Both the position numbers and the translations under genes were made by a program. From positions 71,791 through 135,790 of IMG/VR virus record IMGVR_UViG_3300045988_160113: 64,000 nt of DNA; one strand, 5' to 3'. The DNA is from a virus. Shown here piece by piece: positions 3,917-63,660 of this stretch. Numbering within the stretch: the first letter of the stretch is position 1; every line of letters begins with the position of its first letter. Below the pieces are notes generated by a model. That model ran no database searches. It was not told the DNA's origin and saw only the letters and a program-made list of their open reading frames with translations.

Positions 3917-4794
3917 AAATTACATTTCTCCTTTATATAATTATAGTTTATTTTATCAAAATCTGTATATGGGATTTCTATAAGTGGGATATTATTTTCT
4001 TTACAATATTCTTTTTTCATATTATCAGAATTTTCTTTATTCCACAAATTATTTTTATCATAATGTTGTTCACCTTGATATTCAATTAGACAATATAACT
4101 TATTATCAATAAAAATAGCAAAATCAAAACGTAATGGATATATATTTTTTAGTTCTTGAAAAGAAAATTGTGTTTTGTAAGAAATATTATTTTTTTGTAA
4201 AATAGATAATATTTTTTGTTCTCCTTTAGAATTCATACAACCACAACTTTTTTTCGCTCCAGAGCATAATCTGCTAGTTGTAGATGAAGTAATATTACCA
4301 CAATCACATTTACATTCCCAAATACTTTGTTTGTTTTTATCTTGTCCTATTTTTCTTATTACTACTAATTTTCCAAAACGCATATTAGTAATATCTTTTT
4401 CTACACATTTTTTGTAAAAATTTTCTTCTCTTAGACAACCGCAAGATTGTGTTTGCCCACTATGTAATCGTGAACTAACTACGGAACAAATATTGCCACA
4501 ATCACATTGACAAATCCATTTTATTTTTTTATCGTTAGATAGTTCTATATCTTTTTTTATAACAGTTAGTCTTCCGTATCTATTACCAACTTCAGAACAA
4601 TTTTTACAATCTTTACTGGTTCCTTTTGTTAAACATTGAGTATTTACTTCTTTTTCGTTGCCACATTCGCAACGACATAACCATTTTCTATTTCCTTTAT
4701 ATTCTATAACTGTCCATTTGCTATTTTCTACTCCATGTTCTTTCATAACCCAACCAGTCATATCTATAAAATTATGAGGTCTTTTAGTTTTCAT
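3913..4794 (-). CDS. Cys-rich zinc-ribbon-repeat protein with C-terminal PD-(D/E)XK-like domain
   Basis: Three W.C.C.CGN...SCGC repeats. C-terminus reads PLRFDFAIF...IEYQGEQHY. No GCGCGC sites, as in the HEGs. Confidence 0.5.
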   Translation of the reverse strand: MKTKRPHNFIDMTGWVMKEHGVENSKWTVIEYKGNRKWLCRCECGNEKEVNTQCLTKGTSKDCKNCSEVGNRYGRLTVIKKDIELSNDKKIKWICQCDCGNICSVVSSRLHSGQTQSCGCLREENFYKKCVEKDITNMRFGKLVVIRKIGQDKNKQSIWECKCDCGNITSSTTSRLCSGAKKSCGCMNSKGEQKILSILQKNNISYKTQFSFQELKNIYPLRFDFAIFIDNKLYCLIEYQGEQHYDKNNLWNKENSDNMKKEYCKENNIPLIEIPYTDFDKINYNYIKEKCNL

Positions 4795-4828
4795 GATTCA
4801 CCTCTATATAATTCTTTATTATACTTTT

Positions 4829-4857
4829 ATTATATTTCATTTTTCTTCAAAAGTCAA
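4829..4857 (-). promoter_or_regulatory. sigma70-type promoter (minus strand)
   Basis: Minus strand reads TTGACT-17 bp-TATAAT upstream of 3913-4794. Confidence 0.55.
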
Positions 4858-4936
4858 ATTTCTTTTATATGAAAATGCTATACTTTTCTTTCAAAATATT
4901 TACTTCAAAATAGAATAGAATTATAGGAGGCGCGCA

Positions 4937-7608: not shown

Positions 7609-8097
7609 ATGAAGGAAAAGAAGATTTATAAGATTGAGAATGAGGCTGCAAAGAAGAATCCTAAGCGCAATTACATTGAGTATTATGTGAACGAAGAGAA
7701 GAAGATTGTGACCGCAGTTTTGACTGGCGTGCGTCAGGAAATGTCGAATATGTTTGAAAAGAAGTTTGCTAATGCTGGTTTTTCTGCGCGCCGCGATACT
7801 TGGTTTCTTGGTGGAATCGAAGCACTTTCTGATGTTATGAAGTTTATTCCTGATAAGATTGTAGCAAGTGCTACTTGCGCGCCAGAAGATGAATTTGATG
7901 TAGAGTTTGGTTGTAGTCTTGCTCGTATGCGTCTAATTGAAAAGCTTTATACGTATCGTGAGAGAGTTTCTTATGACCTGGCAGTAAAAGTTGGCATGAT
8001 TCAGTGCGCTCTTATGGATTACAGTGAATTCTGCGGTATCAAGATTGAAAACCTTATGGAAGATATTGATGTTACTCTTTCCGAGCATAACTGGTAA
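7609..8097 (+). CDS. Hypothetical protein
   Basis: ORF track; RBS aaggag. Confidence 0.5.
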   Translation: MKEKKIYKIENEAAKKNPKRNYIEYYVNEEKKIVTAVLTGVRQEMSNMFEKKFANAGFSARRDTWFLGGIEALSDVMKFIPDKIVASATCAPEDEFDVEFGCSLARMRLIEKLYTYRERVSYDLAVKVGMIQCALMDYSEFCGIKIENLMEDIDVTLSEHNW

Positions 8098-8105
8098 TCA
8101 ATAAT

Positions 8106-8133
8106 TTGATTTTTACTAAAATTCAACTATAAT
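8106..8133 (+). promoter_or_regulatory. sigma70-type promoter
   Basis: TTGATT-16 bp-TATAAT. Confidence 0.5.
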
Positions 8134-8164
8134 AAATATATAATCAATAAAGGAGATATGTAAA

Positions 8165-8485
8165 ATGGAAATGGAAAAGATGGCTATCAAGGCTCAGGCA
8201 GAAACCCGCGCAAATCTCTATCGTATTGTTACTGATGCTCTTGGTAGCGAAAATTTTGCTACTCAGCCAATCAAGGGTGGCCGTCTGATTGATCTCAACA
8301 ATGGTTATTATGCTAAGGTTTCTATTAGTATTATTGACCCCAATAATGTTGAACCTGCGATTCAGGCATATGCCGACCAGATGCGTGTGAATGCTGCTCG
8401 TGCTGCTGAGCGCGCAGAAAAGGAAGCAGAAAAGGCTCGTAAGGCCGCAGAGCGTGCGGCTAAGCGTGGAGAGAAGACCGAGTAA
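8165..8485 (+). CDS. Hypothetical protein with A/E/K-rich tail
   Basis: ORF track; RBS aaggaga. Confidence 0.5.
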   Translation: MEMEKMAIKAQAETRANLYRIVTDALGSENFATQPIKGGRLIDLNNGYYAKVSISIIDPNNVEPAIQAYADQMRVNAARAAERAEKEAEKARKAAERAAKRGEKTE

Positions 8486-8501
8486 AAAAAAGAATAGATA
8501 A

Positions 8502-8527
8502 CGCCACAGGAAGCAATTCCTGTGGCG
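8502..8527 (+). terminator. Hairpin, weak terminator candidate
   Basis: cgccacagg-aagcaatt-cctgtggcg. Poor T-run. Confidence 0.35.
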
Positions 8528-8551
8528 CATAGTCATATTTGGAGGTAAATT

Positions 8552-8896
8552 ATGGAGAATATTATCGAGTTAGAAGTTGTAAATAAAAGTATTAGCACTA
8601 AATTTAGACAGAATAACTATGTTAGTGCTGGTGATGTGTATAAATTCAATTTTTCAAATGCTTGGGAGAAATTTTTAGGAGAGAATGCGCGCCTTCAAGC
8701 AACTTATTTGATTGAGAATGGAAGACAAGATATTTATTACTTTGACCCACTAAAAGATTGTAAAAGTAACGCACCTGAGGAATTATTTAGAGAAGAAAAT
8801 GAAGGAAAAACTGTTTATCTTGGTGTTTGTGGTGTGCATGAAGACGGCACTATTTACCCCAGTGTTTATTATCGTTTAGGCGCTATCCGTCTATAA
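8552..8896 (+). CDS. Fibre/baseplate N-terminal-domain paralogue
   Basis: Resembles the first ~110 aa of 8981-11554 (ME..IEL.V..K...; ...VY.G..G......Y.RLG). Confidence 0.5.
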   Translation: MENIIELEVVNKSISTKFRQNNYVSAGDVYKFNFSNAWEKFLGENARLQATYLIENGRQDIYYFDPLKDCKSNAPEELFREENEGKTVYLGVCGVHEDGTIYPSVYYRLGAIRL

Positions 8897-28489: not shown

Positions 28490-28563
28490 GGCACTGTAAC
28501 CCAATTGGCAGAGGTAAATCACTCAAAATGATTGAAGTATGAATTCGAATTTCATCAGTGCCA
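28490..28563 (+). tRNA. tRNA, anticodon CAA (nominally Leu) but with a short variable loop
   Basis: Hand fold: acceptor ggcactg/cagtgcc, anticodon arm aatca-CTCAAAA-tgatt, T arm atgaa-ttcgaat-ttcat, CCA encoded. Confidence 0.6.
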
Positions 28564-28662
28564 CCATAAAGAATTTGGGATAGAGCAGAAAAGCGCACCT
28601 GCTTGATAAGAGTAACTCCCTCTTCCCTTATTCTTATCTTATGGAGTTAGTAAGGAGTAAAA

Positions 28663-29364
28663 ATGGAAGAATATGGCATATTTCAAATTCTTGAAAAGTT
28701 AGATGAAAGAGATAAATATCATCATCAATTATGTCGTATTAGATGCAAATATTGTGGAAGAGAATTTATTCGAGCATATAGTCAAGTAAAAGCTCCGTCT
28801 TCTTACACAACGGTTTGTAACCATAAAAGGAAAAATGGTGAAGATGTTCAGTATGGGATACACTGGAAAAATTCTCGTATAAGAAGTATTTATGCTGGAA
28901 TTATATCTCGTTGTTTCAATGAGGAGGATAGAGATTATCGTTTTTATGGAGCAAAAGGGGTTTCTATTTGTAAAGATTGGCAAGAGAATCCTTTACATTT
29001 TGAAGATTGGGCTTTAGCTAATGGTTATAAAGATAATCTAACTATTGATAGAGAAGATGAGACTAAAGATTATTCACCTGATAATTGTCGATGGATAACA
29101 GGAGAAGAAAATGCTCGTTGGAAATCAACAACAAATCGAATTGATGTTGATGGAGAAATAAAAACTGGACAGCAATGGGCTAAATATTTGGGTTTTGGTC
29201 CAAATCTTATAAATAGTTATATTAGAAAATATGGATGGGATAATACTGTAGAATTTATTCGTCGTTATAAAGCACATCCATATCAAGGATTGCTACCTCA
29301 TAAAACAAGTTATTATTCTATGTATATGTCTGATAATTATAAAAAGGAGAACAATAATGAATAA
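28663..29364 (+). CDS. HNH_3/AP2-like homing-endonuclease-family DNA-binding protein
   Basis: FYGAKGVSICKDW...LTIDREDETKDYSPDNCRWITGEENARW. Confidence 0.5.
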   Translation: MEEYGIFQILEKLDERDKYHHQLCRIRCKYCGREFIRAYSQVKAPSSYTTVCNHKRKNGEDVQYGIHWKNSRIRSIYAGIISRCFNEEDRDYRFYGAKGVSICKDWQENPLHFEDWALANGYKDNLTIDREDETKDYSPDNCRWITGEENARWKSTTNRIDVDGEIKTGQQWAKYLGFGPNLINSYIRKYGWDNTVEFIRRYKAHPYQGLLPHKTSYYSMYMSDNYKKENNNE

Positions 29365-29572
29365 TTATTCCTACTTTATTGGCGATCGTGTTTTTGTAAA
29401 GGATTATGGTGTTGGAACTATCACCAAGATTGACGAGAAGTCGCGTGACTTCACCTATTTCGTCCGTTTCAAGGGACACGCAAGAGGCTGGTTCCCTGAG
29501 TATCGTCTGAGCGAGTATGTGGAACCAGTTGTGAAGGTAGAATCTTCTGATGAGGAAGTATCTACCCTGTAA
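29357..29572 (+). CDS. Hypothetical protein
   Basis: ORF track. Confidence 0.45.
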   Translation: MNNYSYFIGDRVFVKDYGVGTITKIDEKSRDFTYFVRFKGHARGWFPEYRLSEYVEPVVKVESSDEEVSTL

Positions 29573-29593
29573 ATCCATTATCGACTAACTTTT

Positions 29594-29657
29594 CGCGGCC
29601 TTGTGTAAATTGCTTCATTTATAGATAGATTTTTTGGTAAATTTATACAAGGCCGCG
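29594..29657 (+). other. 18-bp-arm inverted repeat
   Basis: cgcggccttgtgtaaatt ... aatttatacaaggccgcg (one G-T). Loop is 28 nt. Confidence 0.6.
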
Positions 29658-29700
29658 ATAAGAGTTTGCTCTGCGCGCAGAATGTGAGAAAGGAGTAATT

Positions 29701-29907
29701 ATGACTTGCCTTGAACATTTGATTGAGAACACTCTTGATAGTTTCAGTAAACGAAAACCCGTCCAAGAAATCTGTGATAGAATTAGAGAAGATGTAAATT
29801 TATCTGGCTCTGGTCTTACTGTTGAGCAGTGTTATGAAATTTGTCAGTTCATTTTTTACGATGTTCTTCCCTATTCTAATTATTATTTAGAAGATAACAG
29901 ATACTAA
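29701..29907 (+). CDS. Hypothetical protein
   Basis: ORF track. RBS lies within CTGCGCGCAGAATGTGAGAAAGGAG. Confidence 0.45.
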   Translation: MTCLEHLIENTLDSFSKRKPVQEICDRIREDVNLSGSGLTVEQCYEICQFIFYDVLPYSNYYLEDNRY

Positions 29908-29910
29908 AAT

Positions 29911-29939
29911 TTGATTTTTCTCAAAATTTCTGCTATAAT
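29911..29939 (+). promoter_or_regulatory. sigma70-type promoter
   Basis: TTGATT-17 bp-TATAAT. Confidence 0.65.
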
Positions 29940-29970
29940 ATTTATAGAAAGTTGAGAGGAGATACATAAA

Positions 29971-30189
29971 ATGAATACCTTGAATTTTGGTGAATTTTAC
30001 AATGAACTCGATGAGAGTGGTAATTCCACTGGTCGTGTCTATAAATGCATTGGTATCGCCGCAGATTATTACCAGACTGGTGAGGAAGTAGTTCTTATGG
30101 CTCGTATTGGTGATGGTGGCTATTCTAATGGTTTGCTTTATATTCCTGTTGGAGATTTCATGGTAGATTTCGAGGAGATTCGAAAATGA
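29971..30189 (+). CDS. Hypothetical protein
   Basis: ORF track. Confidence 0.45.
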   Translation: MNTLNFGEFYNELDESGNSTGRVYKCIGIAADYYQTGEEVVLMARIGDGGYSNGLLYIPVGDFMVDFEEIRK

Positions 30190-30386
30190 ATGAAGATTAT
30201 GTAAAGGGAGAAATGTTAGAAAATTTCTCCAATTCTAACAAAAATCCAGACTATCCTATTATTTGGAGCGATACTGTATGGGAAGATATGAATGTTCCTA
30301 TGTCTTGTCGAATGTGCAGTAATCATCCTATCAATGGTGGAAGTGGAATTTGCTGGTGCGTTCTCGGAGTTCCAGAAATTAGGTAA
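30186..30386 (+). CDS. Small Cys-rich protein
   Basis: ORF track. Confidence 0.45.
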   Translation: MNEDYVKGEMLENFSNSNKNPDYPIIWSDTVWEDMNVPMSCRMCSNHPINGGSGICWCVLGVPEIR

Positions 30387-30392
30387 ATAAAT

Positions 30393-30464
30393 ATGGGCGT
30401 GGTGTAATTGGTAGCATAATAGTCTCCAAAACTATTGGTTTTCGTTCAAGTCGAAACGCTCATG
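30393..30464 (+). tRNA. tRNA-Trp (CCA)
   Basis: Hand fold: atgggcg/cgctcat, atagt-CTCCAAA-actat, tttcg-ttcaagt-cgaaa, CCA encoded. Confidence 0.7.
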
Positions 30465-30567
30465 CCATGCCACGGCGTCGTAGTGTAATTGGCAACACGG
30501 TGCGTAATAAATAAAAGGAAAGGGTAATAAAAGGAAGAGAGGTATTTTATTTTATGGAGTGGTAGTA

Positions 30568-31347
30568 ATGAAAAAGATTGGTATTTATAAAATTATAAAT
30601 ACGGTGAATGGGAAAATTTATGTTGGTCAGTCTATAAATATTTATGACAGATGGACACAGCATAAGTATAAAAGTATCTATTCTGAAGAATTGGGGTATA
30701 ACTCCGCAATTCATGCTGCAATGAGGAAATATGGTTTTGAAAATTTTGTATTTGAAATTATTGAAGAATGTGAACCGGAATTATTAGACGAAAGAGAAAG
30801 ATATTGGATTGAAAAATTGAATTCTTTGACTCCAAATGGTTACAATATCATGCCTGGAGGACAGAAAAATAAAAGAATAATTCATAGATGCTGTGATTGT
30901 GGAGCGATAATTAGCAAAGGTGCGAAAAGATGTGAAAAATGTGCTCATAAAAATCAAGAAAGAGCAAAAAATCCTTTTGAACCTTTGGAATTAGCAGAAG
31001 AAATTAAAGAAAAGGGCTTTGAAGCTTTGGGCAAAGAGTATGGGTATACAAATGGGCGCCCTATAAAAAAATGGTGTAAGCAACTTGGTTTACCAGTGTA
31101 TAAAGAAGAAATTATTAAATGGTATGATGAACAAATGGGGATAAAACCTCCTGAAAAAGTTCAAAAAAAGAATAAGGAAAGGCCAGTTTATAAAATAGAT
31201 TTACAAACAGGAGAGATTTTAGAAGTTTTTTCAAGCATAGCAGAAGCAGCAAGAAGCATTGGAAAAAAGAAAGGTAACCATATTACAGAGGTTTGTAAAG
31301 GAAAATTTCTTTCTGCTTATGGCTATGGGTGGAAATATGTAGAATAA
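30568..31347 (+). CDS. GIY-YIG homing endonuclease (I-TevI-like)
   Basis: GIYKIINTVNGKIYVGQSINIYDRWTQH...RERYWIEKL...NGYN, followed by a Zn-finger/HTH tail. Confidence 0.85.
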   Translation: MKKIGIYKIINTVNGKIYVGQSINIYDRWTQHKYKSIYSEELGYNSAIHAAMRKYGFENFVFEIIEECEPELLDERERYWIEKLNSLTPNGYNIMPGGQKNKRIIHRCCDCGAIISKGAKRCEKCAHKNQERAKNPFEPLELAEEIKEKGFEALGKEYGYTNGRPIKKWCKQLGLPVYKEEIIKWYDEQMGIKPPEKVQKKNKERPVYKIDLQTGEILEVFSSIAEAARSIGKKKGNHITEVCKGKFLSAYGYGWKYVE

Positions 31348-31349
31348 AT

Positions 31350-31420
31350 GTCGTATTGGTGTAATGCTAGCATAAGACACTTCCAATGTCTTGGTGGCAG
31401 TTGGAATCTGCTATACGACC
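31350..31420 (+). tRNA. tRNA-Gly (TCC)
   Basis: gtcgtat/atacgac, agaca-CTTCCAA-tgtct. T loop ttggaat. Starts 3 nt after the HEG stop. Confidence 0.65.
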
Positions 31421-31525
31421 CCATCGTCACACACTCCGTGACGAAAATTCTCTTTCCCCCCTTTCCTTTGCCCTGGCAGGCGGCATTATAGTCTGCTTTC
31501 CCCCTCAATAGTAATATATATATAT

Positions 31526-31599
31526 GGAGCAGTAACTCAGTTTGGTAGAGTAGCGGTCTTTTAAGCCGTCTGTCGGGTGTTCGAATCACCTCTGCTTCA
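31526..31599 (+). tRNA. tRNA-Lys (TTT)
   Basis: ggagcag/ctgcttc, gcggt-CTTTTAA-gccgt, gggtg-ttcgaat-cacct, CCA. Confidence 0.75.
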
Positions 31600-31605
31600 C
31601 CATAC

Positions 31606-31678
31606 GGGAGATTAGCTCAGTTGGTAGAGCGCGTGACTGTTAATCACGATGGCGTAAGTTCGAACCTTACATTTCCCG
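31606..31678 (+). tRNA. tRNA-Asn (GTT)
   Basis: gggagat/atttccc, gctc-agttggta-gagc, cgtga-CTGTTAA-tcacg, gtaag-ttcgaac-cttac, CCA. Confidence 0.8.
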
Positions 31679-31828
31679 CCAAGGTTACCACTGAGCCGTA
31701 AAGTGGCGGGTGAAATTCTCGATAGCTGGGGTCTGAGTTTTACGCTATCTCTTTTGACATGGGGTTAAAGCGGTTAATCAGAATTAAATGAGGAAACAGT
31801 GTCATTAATCTCTACCAGCAAATTTTAT

Positions 31829-31902
31829 GGGACAATAGCTTATGAGGTCTGAGCACTGGTCTGAAAAACCAGAGGGTGATGGATCGTTACCATCTTGTCC
31901 CA
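31829..31902 (+). tRNA. tRNA-Phe (GAA), atypical T loop
   Basis: gggacaa/ttgtccc, ctggt-CTGAAAA-accag, gatgg-atcgtta-ccatc, CCA. Confidence 0.6.
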
Positions 31903-31933
31903 CCATTTGAAATTCATTATAAAGATGACGCTA

Positions 31934-32005
31934 TGGTGCGGTAGTTTAGTTGGTAAAACGGAGGACTTATAATCCTTTGTCTCTTGTTCAAACCAAGGGC
32001 GCACC
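31934..32005 (+). tRNA. tRNA-Ile (TAT)
   Basis: gttt/aaac D stem, gagga-CTTATAA-tcctt, tcttg-ttcaaac-caagg, CCA. One acceptor mismatch. Confidence 0.6.
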
Positions 32006-32017
32006 ACCACTTCAAAA

Positions 32018-34958: not shown

Positions 34959-35237
34959 ATGTTTATTCCTGCTAATCCATCTGTTTTTCCTTGTGAAAAT
35001 TGTACACATCGTGGTATTTGTAAATATGAAGATGATGTAATGAGTTTTGTTCGCTGTGCTAAATTGCCTGAACAAGAATGCTTGTCTATCAAGTATGAAT
35101 GTAAGTATAAGACTTATACAAATTTGTTTGGTGGATATAGGGATTTTGAAGTGACTAAGATTAGTAATACTAATGGTTGTACTACTTCTCGTCCTTATAC
35201 TATTGATACATCTTCAGAATGTATTGATAAAATTTGA
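34959..35237 (+). CDS. Small Cys-rich protein
   Basis: Start MFIPANPSVFPCENC after ggaggtaag. Confidence 0.45.
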   Translation: MFIPANPSVFPCENCTHRGICKYEDDVMSFVRCAKLPEQECLSIKYECKYKTYTNLFGGYRDFEVTKISNTNGCTTSRPYTIDTSSECIDKI

Positions 35238-35261
35238 CAAAATCTAAAATTTCTGATATAA
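35233..35261 (+). promoter_or_regulatory. sigma70-type promoter driving ORF-free region
   Basis: TTGACA-17 bp-TATAAT. Confidence 0.65.
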
Positions 35262-35267
35262 TATATT

Positions 35268-36594
35268 CAGAAAGTGAGAGGAGAACTAAATCTCCTCAAT
35301 ATAGCAGTAGGGAGAAACGGTTTCCTCGCTTGGCTCATAACCAAGAGACATCTGGGTCAGCACCAGTTACCGCAACCACAATTAAAAACAATGAGGCTAA
35401 CGGCAGTTGCATCAACGAAAGTTGATTAGACGGGTCGGGGTTAGCAAAGAAAGGTTAACAGGTAGTGCAGCGGTAGGTAACAAATCCGTAAGTCGAAATG
35501 AGTTGGGAAAACCAAATGATACGGCTTAGTCCTTCGTAAGAAGTTGAAGAGAGATTTTAGGTAAAAGGTAACAACTTTTAACTGCTCTTCGTAATTGACC
35601 ATGAAACAGGGTCATAGCTACCACTCATTGTTTTTAGATGTTTTATCAAAGAAGACGAATGGTTGGTGAGTCTCAAAACAACCCAACTACCACATTACTA
35701 ATCATCGCTACTCGTGGTTAGTAAGTTGTTTTAGAAGTAGCAAACCTACGAGTATGGTAGGCGGCGCGGTAATAGTCGTAAAGGGTGAGGTAAAGCTGAA
35801 TTATCATTTGAGGTAGTTTCTTTCTCCTAGCCAAAAACAGAAACCGGTGCGCAGTCGTGAAATGCGGGAATGGTAGATAAGCCTTAGTGTACTACTCATA
35901 CGGTTGTGAGTTCTCCTATGTATCTTGAGAACTCTCGGCGGCGAATGCCTAAATCTCCCCGCCCGCGCGGTTATAGCGGCGTTTACCAAACTGTTATTCG
36001 ATAAAATGGTTTGGAAGTGCGAGTAGTAACTTGGAATTACTCCCGAAAGCAACGGTTAGATTGCTCAACTTGCTAGACTCAAGTTGACAAATGGGAGGTG
36101 GCCCCTCCTATGTCTCCCACGCAACACTAAGCGCGGGCGTATATGGGAAATAGTCAACCATATACTTATTGGGTTGAGAGTGTAATATTATACATAAAAT
36201 CCCTCTGCGCGCAGAGTAAATCTGCGGTATCGTAGTAAAAACTCTACAAAAAAACTATATCAAAGGGACGACTCTAAACGAGGTAAGGGAAACAAAGTAA
36301 AGAGTACATTCTCTTAGGCTACTTTGGTATTATATGTGGTGTGGTTGAGGAGTATGGGCGACGATACACCGGAATGCGGAGTTAGCGACATACTGTGTAG
36401 ATGGCGAGTCAACAGAGCGATATAGTTTATTTTGGCTTCCTTTCCGCTCTTGCGGGATGACTCTAGGATAGCGATACTACAAAGTAAAGGAGGACTGTGA
36501 TTTATTCATAGCCCTCTTTTGCTTTACCAAAATTGTGTATTTTTAGGTAGAAAATTTTACTTAGTAATAAGAGGTTATAAAATTATAACCTTTT
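35268..36594 (+). ncRNA. Candidate large structured ncRNA (R1, ~1.3 kb)
   Basis: Promoter at 35233 and terminator at 36573. No ORF above 82 aa in any frame. GC visibly higher than the flanks. Many local stems. 5' motif GAATGGTTGGTGAG...AACCCAACTACCA is shared with R2. Confidence 0.55.
36573..36594 (+). terminator. Terminator candidate at end of R1
   Basis: ggttataaaattataacc palindrome followed by TTTT. Confidence 0.5.
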
Positions 36595-36627
36595 ATAATA
36601 TATTTTATAAAACAAGGAGGGAATAAT

Positions 36628-37239
36628 ATGGATAATATAGTTGTTTCCATTCCCGAACGTGCGAACACAACCATCCCTGACCCAAGTCTATTATGGTATT
36701 ATGAAGACTTAGAAGATAGAGTTTATCAATTGGTTGGAGAGGTTGATGAAGGTTTGCTAGATTTCTCACGCCACGTTATTAGATGGAATAGAGAAGATAA
36801 AGGAAAACCAGTTGAAGAGCGTAAGCCTATAAAATTATTTTTCTTTAGTCCTGGTGGAAGTCTTGATATAAATTATTCTGTCATTGATATTATTCGCTTG
36901 AGCAAAACTCCTATTATTGGCATCAATATGGGTGTTTGTTGTTCTGCGGCGGCGTATATTTATCTTGCTTGCCATAAGCGTTATATGCTCCCTCATTCTT
37001 ATTTTGTATTTCATCAAGGCAGTTCTCAAATGTCAGGAACTTATGGTGAAGTTGTTGCTATTATGACTGATTATCAGAATCAAGTTGCTGAATTAAGTTC
37101 CTTTATGGAAGAGAGAACTACTTATACTAGTGAGGAAATTACTGACAATATCGTTACTGAATGGTATGTAAGGGAAGAGGAAGCTCTTGAAAAGGGAGTA
37201 TGCCACGAAGTAATAGAAGATATAGAGGTGCTATTATAA
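36628..37239 (+). CDS. ClpP-family serine protease
   Basis: LFFFSPGGSLD...GVCCSAAAYI...FVFHQGS (Ser/His positions as in ClpP). Confidence 0.7.
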   Translation: MDNIVVSIPERANTTIPDPSLLWYYEDLEDRVYQLVGEVDEGLLDFSRHVIRWNREDKGKPVEERKPIKLFFFSPGGSLDINYSVIDIIRLSKTPIIGINMGVCCSAAAYIYLACHKRYMLPHSYFVFHQGSSQMSGTYGEVVAIMTDYQNQVAELSSFMEERTTYTSEEITDNIVTEWYVREEEALEKGVCHEVIEDIEVLL

Positions 37240-38067
37240 GTGGGATATATTTATAAGATTAGCAATACTGTAAATAATAAAGTTTATATAGGGCAAACCT
37301 CTCGAACGGTAGAAAAAAGATGGAATTTACATAAGCGAACAGCAAAAAATCCTTCTTATCTATCTTATTCATATCCTTTATATCAAGCTATGAGAAAATA
37401 TGGTATAGATAATTTTCAAATTGAAGTTATTGAAGAAACTGATAATAAAAATTTGAATGAGCGAGAAGTTTATTGGATATCTTATTATGATTCATATAAT
37501 AAAGGTTATAATATGACTTTAGGTGGAGATGGCCATTATAAATATGAAGATGAAGATTTTTTAGAATTATGGAATCAAGGGTATAATGCTGCTCAAATTA
37601 CAGAAATGCTACATTGTGATAGACATACAGTCGCCGATAGGCTATCTCAATTAGTTCCAAATTATTCTAATTTACAAAAAGAGAGACAAACTCCTTCAAG
37701 ATATTCTTTTGAAAAAGAGCAAAAAATTAGAGAATGCTGGGATAAAGGAATGAGTTCTAAACAGATTCAAGAAGAATTAGGAATAAATAGAAAAGGTATA
37801 AAGGGATATCTGGTAAAATATAAAAATTTTTCCGAAGAAGACTGGGAAAAAAGAAATTATGTTCAAAGAAAAAATAGCAACCCTCAAAAAATTGCTATAA
37901 AACAATTGACTTTAGATGGTCAAGAAGTAGCAGTACATCAATCTATTGCTGATGCTGGAAGAGCAGTTGGAGATGTTAGACGAAGTGCCAATATTCGCGC
38001 TTGTCTTATTGGAAAACAAATAACGGCATATGGATACAAATGGCAATATGCTGATAAGGAGAACTAA
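37240..38067 (+). CDS. GIY-YIG homing endonuclease
   Basis: GYIYKISNTVNNKVYIGQTSRTVEKRWNLH...REVYWISYY...KGYN. GTG start abutting the ClpP stop. Confidence 0.8.
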   Translation: MGYIYKISNTVNNKVYIGQTSRTVEKRWNLHKRTAKNPSYLSYSYPLYQAMRKYGIDNFQIEVIEETDNKNLNEREVYWISYYDSYNKGYNMTLGGDGHYKYEDEDFLELWNQGYNAAQITEMLHCDRHTVADRLSQLVPNYSNLQKERQTPSRYSFEKEQKIRECWDKGMSSKQIQEELGINRKGIKGYLVKYKNFSEEDWEKRNYVQRKNSNPQKIAIKQLTLDGQEVAVHQSIADAGRAVGDVRRSANIRACLIGKQITAYGYKWQYADKEN

Positions 38068-46737: not shown

Positions 46738-46746
46738 TAAGCAAAT

Positions 46747-63194: not shown

Positions 63195-63660
63195 GGGTAG
63201 TAGGGGTAGTATATAGTAATATAATAATATAGTAAAATGGTCTGCGCGCAGAGTGAAAGAAAATAATTATAAAAATAATTATTAGGGGTAGGGGGTAGTA
63301 TTTAGGGTAGGGGTAGTAGAAAATAAATAAGAAAATTTTGGGAAAATTGAAATTTTAGAATTTTGGAGAAAGGGGAGAGGGGGTCCCGTGCGCGAAGCGC
63401 ACTGGGGGAGAGGGGCGAAGCCCCTCTCCAGGGAGAGTGAGAGGAGGGTAGTAGGGGTAGGTGTAGGGGTAGTAGGGGTAACAAGTTAGGTAGTGTAGGA
63501 GTAGGGGTAGTGTAGCTGGTGTGGGGGTAATGTAGATGTAGTCTAGTAGCTGAGCTAGTAGTCGGACTAGTAGCCGGACTAGTAGCCTCTATATAGGGGT
63601 AGTAGGGGAATTAGTAAGGGGTTGGTGTAGGCTGGTGTGGGTTGATGTAGGGGTAGGTGT
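63195..63660 (+). repeat. Strand-biased GGGGTAG(TAG) repeat region (G-quadruplex-prone)
   Basis: At least 15 GGG(G)TAG units, all on the + strand. Long stretches lack C. Confidence 0.75.
63388..63429. other. Two adjacent GAA-triloop hairpins, each containing GCGAAGC
   Basis: gtgcgc-GAA-gcgcac (63388-63402) and ggagaggggc-GAA-gcccctctcc (63407-63429). Confidence 0.75.

Follow-up and report, generated by a model that had tools for sequence, protein, structure and literature searches.

A promoter-driven array of conserved RNA structures in a large gut phage, with a RAGATH-33 RNA and a candidate new class of large phage RNA

Large phage RNAs and the locus under study

To our knowledge, very few large and complex structured RNAs are known from bacteria and phages. 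For GOLLD and ROOL the function is unsolved despite recent cryo-electron microscopy structures. These phage RNAs of unknown function often lie near tRNA islands, and both form RNA-only cages (PMC12286853). In GOLLD the 3′ region is conserved and the 5′ region variable, and one example lies downstream of a Met-tRNA, and ROOL is treated as an RNA in its own right, not as a leader (PMC12286853). Much shorter elements make up a 2023 survey of viral structured RNAs, with motifs of 29–151 nucleotides (nt) only. The locus described here covers positions 35268–36594 of a 64,000-nt stretch of DNA (the window), taken from IMG/VR virus record IMGVR_UViG_3300045988_160113 (positions 71,791–135,790). It is a noncoding, plus-strand, promoter-driven array of conserved RNA structures, with one known motif (RAGATH-33) and an undescribed ∼800-nt RNA that shares the genomic niche of ROOL. 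Its RNAs are conserved in base pairing and not in codons, and its blocks are cassettes that are exchanged, replaced and deleted between related phages.

The initial annotation saw in the region one large structured RNA of ∼1.3 kilobases (kb). The noncoding, promoter-driven and structurally conserved character of the locus stands, but its unity does not: ∼250 nt are a RAGATH-33 RNA, and the independent loss or exchange of blocks in relatives shows that this is not a single 1.3-kb molecule. The locus is probably, though by no means surely, a stable-RNA operon of a large gut phage, with a large member that represents a new phage RNA of the ROOL/GOLLD kind. The ∼800-nt RNA is best filed as a new class among large structured phage RNAs, with a narrow range and modest covariation. 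From 5′ to 3′, the features are the following.

35234–35262, plus strand: sigma-70-type promoter TTGACA-17-TGaTATAAT, matching the consensus at 12 of 12 positions, with a TG extension
35278–35297, plus strand: leader hairpin GAGGAGA-ACUAAA-UCUCCUC, read from the sequence, sequestering the Shine–Dalgarno (SD)-like leader of the promoter family
35304–35378, plus strand: tRNA-like element with anticodon loop CUCAUAA and end ..CCGCAACCA, folding as a cloverleaf
35384–35635, plus strand: full-length RAGATH-33-class RNA of ∼252 nt (Rfam model match at 35396–35523)
35645–35692, plus strand: conserved 51-nt block, hairpin 35660–35666/35683–35689 followed by CCA (35690–35692)
35693–35807, plus strand: swappable 5′ piece of 115 nt (module W), with hairpin UUACUAAUCA../..UGGUUAGUAA in the predicted fold
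35808–36480, plus strand: core of the large structured RNA, domains I and II, from nhmmer and covariation
36481–36525, plus strand: terminator-like hairpin T1, GGAGGACUGUGA..UCAUAGCCCUC then UUUUGCUUU, with 19 pairs (helix 27) and a U-run
36567–36596, plus strand: terminal hairpin T2, AUAAGAGGUUAUA-AAAU-UAUAACCUUUUAU, with 13 pairs and UA, UG or CG at one pair

A noncoding plus-strand locus behind a phage promoter

A consensus scan places the −35 hexamer TTGACA at 35234–35239 and the −10 hexamer TATAAT at 35257–35262, separated by a 17-nt spacer, so that the perfect promoter recognized in the initial annotation is confirmed. It belongs to a family of ∼12 near-identical plus-strand phage promoters within the window, sharing ..AAAATTTGAnA..TGnTATAATATATATAGAAAGTGAGAG (sites 29902, 32010, 34442, 35225, 40841, 43480, 46738, 49785, 50203, 55692, 59371 and 61509; leader motif ..AAAATTTGAnA..TGnTATAATATATATAGAAAGUGAGAG..). 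Most other copies have a ribosome-binding sequence (RBS) and an ATG within ∼25 nt downstream, i.e. they precede protein genes. The copies that do not front a start codon are that of the RNA locus (35225) and the one at 46738 (no ATG in the 86 nt shown). At the RNA locus, the SD-like GAGGAGA (35278–35284) faces UCUCCUC (35291–35297); this pairing, likewise noticed before, is read directly, and the equivalent hairpin in the related contigs L063 and L069 has another stem sequence (AGAGAAG/CUUCUCU). In L060 a homologous promoter stands before ROOL, and in L063 and L067 before the type B RNA, described below.

The longest open reading frame (ORF) on the plus strand encodes 63 amino acids (aa) and starts within the −35 hexamer; the longest on the minus strand encodes 82 aa. 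Neither is conserved among homologues, in line with the earlier statement that the 1.3 kb contain no credible ORF, and the longest stop-free stretches in nine homologues (63–90 aa) shift in position. Codon-like, 3-nt periodic conservation had been named as the sign of a missed gene, and the test was negative. Variable columns of the core alignment divide almost evenly among codon phases (61/62/66). Gap runs, of which 115 were counted over all sequences, are 1 nt long in 84 cases, and there are others of 2, 5 and 11 nt. Thus, no conserved frame, no periodicity and no preference for indels in threes is found. A missed protein-coding gene or a set of small ORFs, for which the existence of the 63- and 82-aa frames could be invoked, is extremely improbable, given these results, the start of the 63-aa frame inside a promoter element and the compensatory nature of substitutions in stems.

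Base pairs also indicate the strand. G·U cells outnumber A·C cells by 278 vs 16 overall and by 100 vs 16 within variable pairs, which argues for an RNA read from the plus strand. Folding energy alone is not diagnostic in this respect, since the reverse strand of 35808–36594 folds as stably (z = −6.8) as the forward one (z = −5.3). The GC content, earlier described as visibly higher than in the flanks, is indeed 0.39–0.45 vs 0.33–0.36 in the immediate flanks, but the argument is weak because a 642-aa gene 1.5 kb upstream is equally GC-rich.

The RAGATH-33 RNA

A scan of the whole window with Rfam at gathering thresholds returns seven tRNAs and RAGATH-33 and no other family. The match to RF03102 (35396–35523, plus strand) scores 129.9 bits vs a gathering score of 120.4 (E 5e-27), covers model positions 1–113 of 113 and accounts for about one fifth of the flagged region. 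A conserved 21-mer used as a search pattern in IMG/VR led to 20 RAGATH-33 loci, all 20 above the gathering score. Nearly all are inside tRNA arrays of contigs of 60–219 kb, one of them with ROOL 2 kb away, and in L014 RAGATH-33 and ROOL (302 bits) share one tRNA array. A scan of a genome collection with the RAGATH-33 pattern gave mostly chance matches, the real ones being only L024 and L029. Several phages give the RNA a TTGACA/TATACT promoter of its own, and elsewhere it begins 14–17 nt past a tRNA.

Similarity of these loci to the window spans 35385 to ∼35650. In an alignment of 17 sequences (A5), 95.8% of the cells are paired, and 32 pairs are doubly substituted vs 18.8±2.2 in shuffles (0/500) and 5–10 in slid controls. 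The closing helix 35384–35395/35624–35635 (10–12 base pairs (bp)) shows changes on both sides in 9 of 10 pairs. The conserved AGGUAGU, unpaired in the Rfam model, pairs with GCUACC ∼180 nt downstream and covaries as GGCAUU/GAUGCC. Among the helices of the model, the hairpins at columns 78–97 and 142–154 covary and the stem at columns 35–77 is fully paired throughout; the folding of the 254-nt stretch has z = −4.7. The conserved RNA is ∼250 nt long, and the Rfam model with its 113 positions spans just its 5′ half. A fuller RAGATH-33, of which the present model is half, should improve detection and structure prediction for the family, of which no mention was found in the literature searched. The ..UAGCUACCA sequence was considered as a tRNA-like ACCA 3′ end and rejected, because it pairs internally with AGGUAGU and this pairing covaries.

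The ∼800-nt RNA

Relatives of the locus were collected by exact-protein look-up of the adjacent ClpP-like gene, which led to gut-metagenome contigs of the same phage lineage, and by searches with DNA patterns, which added L049 (IMG/VR) and L052 and L058 (metagenomes, in one scan that also gave chance matches). Five core DNA patterns retrieved from IMG/VR only L049 or no match, a ClpP-like protein pattern gave no match in IMG/VR, and none of 50,697 phage records matched the region by blastn. The lineage is without a sequenced isolate. Its ClpP-like homologues form clades at 90–100%, 71%, 68% and 61–66% identity.

The ∼790 nt from 35808 to 36596 are alignable in all relatives (nhmmer E<1e-250). 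Alignment A4 comprises nine distinct homologues of 35800–36600, 78–90% identical to the window and hereafter called type A. Its RNAalifold consensus contains 243 pairs with 98.5% of the cells paired; 20 pairs are doubly substituted vs 9.1±2.0 in shuffles (0/500) and 0–4 in slid controls, with a covariation score of 0.098 vs 0.064. The core folds into domain I (∼35847–36212), closed by GUGCGCAG/CUGCGCGC, and domain II (∼36232–36480), which contains a 15-bp helix (36247–36261/36419–36434). Covarying helices include 35816–35821/35839–35844, with GUUUCU/AGAAAC vs AACUUU/AAAGUU, and 36139–36146/36158–36165, with GUAUAUGG/CCAUAUAC vs GUGUAUAG/CUAUACAC; helix 35987–35996/36004–36014 also has doubly substituted pairs. 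Helix 35847–35854/36205–36212 is retained in L049 and L052, in which the alternative local palindrome is lost by deletion.

Of the local stems listed in the initial annotation, gagttctc/gagaactc, ggagg/cctcc and gacc/ggtc vary in sequence and stay paired, but caacttg/caagttg, although present, is not paired in the consensus fold: there CAACTTG pairs with a distant partner rather than with caagttg, and neither pairing covaries. A long-range pairing of AGCCAAAA with UUUUGGCU (35829–35836 with 36428–36435) was rejected, since relatives have UUUUGACU with no compensating change.

Two long hairpins follow the core. T1 shows a compensatory U-A to C-G change in L049, has a different stem, GGAGUGUUGAU/AUCGACACUCC, in type B and is kept in the deletion variant L069. 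T2 corresponds to the terminator-like palindrome placed earlier at 36573 and covaries. After it come a U-rich run, an RBS (GGAGGG) and, at 36628, the ATG with which the ClpP-like gene starts; in type B the hairpin is reduced to a 5-bp version without U-run. Both T1 and T2 covary and precede U-rich sequence. A consensus terminator scan called neither, T2 being passed over because it has only two G-C pairs.

Type B occupies the same position in three contigs (L063, L067 and L071) of the 65–71% ClpP clades. It is a ∼760-nt ORF-free, GC-rich stretch, in the order promoter, leader hairpin, tRNA (52.4 bits in L067), RNA and ClpP. Homology between the two types by hidden Markov models is reciprocal but limited to the last ∼200 nt (E 1e-11 and 2e-8). 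Type B also has the 15-bp helix that in type A pairs CAAAAAAACUAUAUC with GAUAUAGUUUAUUUUG (36247–36261/36419–36434). Its distal part is completely re-coded there and still complementary: CGGCGC/GCGCCG, CGACGC/GCGUCG and CGGUAU/AUACCG. A MAFFT alignment of both types misplaced the 5′ strand of this long-range helix, so it was compared by reading the sequences directly. As a separate observation, a tRNA-Gly(UCC)-like gene before the type B RNA of L063 (395–1231) is split in the anticodon loop by ∼790 nt that contain a 241-aa HNH-like ORF and give no group I intron match at gathering threshold; the gene is intact in L067 (2660–2730).

The domain structure bears on another view of the locus, namely that it is a chain of small independent RNAs and decayed tRNA-derived cassettes, with a core that consists of two or more RNAs of ∼200–370 nt. 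Modularity of the locus is demonstrable, covariation in the core is almost wholly confined to local hairpins, the helices that would join the domains (35808–35812/36560–36564 and 36232–36237/36475–36480) never vary, and the 5′ parts of types A and B have no detectable similarity. Nevertheless, domains I and II occur together, with no promoter between them, in all nine type A sequences that extend over the two (L048 being truncated 5′) and in the three type B sequences. Domain I is closed by a helix that spans 360 nt and survives deletions in L049 and L052, and domain II by the 15-bp helix, which spans 170 nt and covaries between subtypes; thus, even the smallest units are large multi-helix domains. 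A chain of small RNAs is unlikely on this evidence.

Cassettes, punctuation and processing

The tRNA-like element at 35304–35378 is not called by ARAGORN and has no match to the Rfam tRNA model (RF00005) at E≤10. Its counterpart in L040 is a better cloverleaf with a UUCGAUU T-loop, and at the corresponding place L067 has the true tRNA already mentioned. It is probably a degenerate tRNA that serves as a processing signal. Downstream, the 51-nt hairpin-ACCA block is 92–96% identical to blocks in L008, L009 and L016, and its stems are compensatory (GGUUGG/CCAACU in the window, GGCUGG/CCAGCU in L049 and GGCCGG/CCGGCU in L040). In L042 and L043, a tRNA-Cys-like 3′ end stands directly before 35693, its CCA in register with the hairpin-ACCA.

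Sequences between these elements are exchanged. L040 and L045 retain the promoter, the leader, the tRNA-like element and everything from ∼35657 on (alignments A1 and A3), and have 66–134 nt of other sequence in place of the RAGATH-33 block (35380–35655). Module W is kept in L040, L042, L043 and L045. In L049 and L066, an unrelated module of ∼190 nt replaces 35693–35807, and it recurs at L016 7790–7980. Collectively, this suggests that the exchangeable RNA cassettes of phage tRNA islands are set apart by tRNA-like and hairpin-CCA elements as punctuation.

The replacing module is RNA-like in its own right. In L016 (7790–7980) and L049 (∼4710–4900, minus strand) it reads AAUGGUAAUAAGUGCG...CUUAUUAUCAUUACCAU, with complementary ends, comes after the same hairpin-ACCA element and matches no Rfam family at gathering threshold. 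L016 is a 165-kb viral contig also bearing RAGATH-33 and RAGATH-18. Its positions 7980–8590, between the 190-nt module and a tRNA, are ∼600 nt without an ORF >60 aa and may hold further undescribed RNAs.

How such an array would be expressed can be sketched. The strong phage promoter at 35234 would drive transcription into a leader in which the RBS is locked in a hairpin, so that nothing would be translated. The predicted transcript would contain, in order, the degenerate tRNA, the 252-nt RAGATH-33-class RNA, the hairpin-ACCA, the large RNA of ∼800–900 nt and two hairpins. The large RNA itself would combine the swappable 5′ piece with the two-domain core, and the ClpP–PhoH genes would follow the hairpins, past which some transcription probably extends into ClpP. 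Both the tRNA-like element and the hairpin-ACCA may recruit tRNA-maturation enzymes that release the individual RNAs, with RNase P acting on the 5′ side and trimming to CCA on the 3′ side. Once released, the large RNA would be an abundant, folded accessory molecule with a role in trans, as is thought for ROOL and GOLLD, and may form a self-assembling particle linked to the tRNA and translation programme of the phage. The same processing logic is seen in the tRNA cluster of phage T4, where two stable RNAs unrelated in sequence (species 1 and 2, or rnaC and rnaD, ∼120–140 nt) are co-transcribed with tRNAs and released by tRNA-processing enzymes. We know of nothing in T4 of the size of the 800-nt RNA.

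In support of a processed operon, a true tRNA stands immediately before the type B RNA, and the CCA of the tRNA-Cys-like end is in register with the hairpin-ACCA. Several points weigh against this reading. Transcript boundaries and processing are predictions from sequence. Within type A, the long-range helices of the core mostly do not vary, and the sequences are mosaics of few haplotypes, which leaves few independent compensatory events. Homologues of the core, nine of type A (78–90% identity) and three of type B, all come from one phage lineage. Homology between the two types is demonstrable for no more than the 3′ 200 nt. Lastly, the terminal hairpins and the last 180 nt may belong to a leader of ClpP, since they are kept in natural deletion variants (L069 899–1244 and L070 3156–3501) that have the promoter and the tRNA-like element and only ∼180 nt before ClpP. 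Absence of the large RNA from these variants indicates that it is dispensable.

The same variants could be taken to mean that the whole region serves the ClpP–PhoH operon in cis, as a long 5′ leader or an attenuator that controls read-through or translation. A promoter scan saw no separate consensus promoter for ClpP, the promoter, the tRNA-like element and ∼180 nt stand directly before ClpP in L069 and L070, the last 200 nt before this gene are the most widely conserved part, and two U-run hairpins lie just upstream of its RBS. This explanation is nonetheless improbable: the large RNA is precisely what L069 and L070 lack; other phages have RAGATH-33 far from any ClpP gene, behind a promoter of its own or between tRNAs; and in a sister clade ROOL sits in the promoter-proximal slot, three genes before ClpP. 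Moreover, we know of no precedent for a 1.3-kb leader made of exchangeable cassettes.

Genomic neighbourhood

The RNA locus belongs to a phage with tRNA genes. A seven-gene tRNA array (Leu, Trp, Gly, Lys, Asn, Phe and Ile-UAU) lies at 28490–32009 and encloses a GIY-YIG/NUMOD1 homing-endonuclease gene (30559–31347); a second GIY-YIG gene is at 37240–38067. Genes around the RNA locus encode the ClpP-like protease, homing endonucleases of the GIY-YIG type, PhoH and a T4-type RNA ligase 1. The only matches of a structural protein are distant ones, to Clostridium, Staphylococcus and uncultured human-gut phages, and the host is probably a gut member of Bacillota. Contigs of the lineage reach 136 kb.

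Two further observations concern other parts of these genomes. In L042 and L043 (2443–4425), PhoH is interrupted: two fragments of it flank a 271-aa ORF with a faint LAGLIDADG match, which may reflect an intron or the insertion of a free-standing homing endonuclease. The window also has, at 63388–63470, a G-rich stretch (GGGGGAGAGGGGCGAAGCCCCUCUCC..GGGUAGUAGGGGUAGGUGUAGGGGUAGU) that is conspicuous in so AT-rich a genome, with a GC-rich hairpin followed by GGGGUAG-like repeats.

Comparison with ROOL and GOLLD

The initial annotation left the choice between membership of GOLLD or ROOL and a new class, and suggested a scan with the models of GOLLD, ROOL, HEARO, raiA and OLE. None of these matched. 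Searched at E≤10, 35100–36750 contains no credible match besides RAGATH-33, i.e. no GOLLD, ROOL, HEARO, OLE, raiA or group I or group II intron. At the same threshold the GOLLD and ROOL models find nothing in type B or in three homologues of type A, nor in the isolated 3′ domain under lax filters, and the ∼790-nt core is without any Rfam match in the region, in its homologues and in that 3′ domain. The same searches detect ROOL in related loci at 302 bits (L014) and 325.6 bits (L060), and blastn of the new RNA against two ROOL sequences shows no similarity. Membership of either family is thus not borne out, and the largest component of the locus matches no described family.

Could the large RNA be a highly diverged GOLLD or ROOL missed by the Rfam models? 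It is ∼800 nt long, phage-borne and downstream of a tRNA or tRNA-like element with a CAU anticodon loop, its 3′ part is more conserved than its variable 5′ part, as in GOLLD, and its position is equivalent to that of ROOL. The failure of both models on the region, on type A and type B homologues and on the isolated 3′ domain, set against ROOL scores of 302–326 bits elsewhere and the negative blastn result, makes this very improbable. A new class remains the preferred assignment for the ∼800-nt RNA. In general features it is of the GOLLD/ROOL kind: noncoding, at least several hundred nt long, rich in conserved helices, phage-borne and tRNA-associated.

A more daring proposal would make the ∼800-nt RNA the third giant phage RNA class after GOLLD and ROOL to form a protein-free, symmetric, self-assembled particle. 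A conserved GCGCGC-containing palindrome at 36203–36216 is a candidate intermolecular contact, and this RNA, ROOL or nothing would be interchangeable accessories of the tRNA programme. We regard the proposal as speculative and rather unlikely. Were it true, the natural carriage of this RNA, of ROOL or of nothing would show that the three states are functionally interchangeable. Independently of it, the locus adds a candidate new class of large RNA with covariation support and offers a natural comparison set of sister phages with the same gene order, in which the same promoter is followed by this RNA, by ROOL or by a deletion. Such a set makes the role of these RNAs for the phage more approachable by comparative genomics, metatranscriptomics and swaps.

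Like the new RNA, GOLLD exceeds 800 nt, is phage-borne and is associated with tRNA islands. In both, the 3′ part is conserved (in the new RNA, between subtypes) and the 5′ part variable, and the new RNA likewise has a tRNA or a tRNA-like element with a CAU loop upstream. GOLLD is set apart from it by the covariance model, in searches with no GOLLD positive control, and the new RNA, unlike GOLLD, is limited in distribution to one gut-phage lineage.

ROOL (RF03087) is, as is the new RNA, a large structured noncoding RNA of phages and prophages found near tRNA genes. It differs in length (∼580–640 nt vs ∼790–900 nt), in the two domains and the swappable 5′ piece that mark the new RNA, and in covariance model and sequence, neither of which matches. 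ROOL oligomerises (PMC12286853). The closest link between the two is their genomic slot. In L060, a 93.8-kb Logan contig (SRR8960147) of the 68% ClpP clade, ROOL (1361–1997, 325.6 bits) lies directly behind a promoter (L060 1286–1339) homologous to that at 35234, and is preceded by two tRNAs, of which one measures 142 nt and may contain an intron. Three other genes separate it from ClpP, and the ClpP–PhoH order is kept. ROOL and the ∼800-nt RNA thus occupy equivalent slots behind homologous promoters, upstream of the same ClpP–PhoH block.

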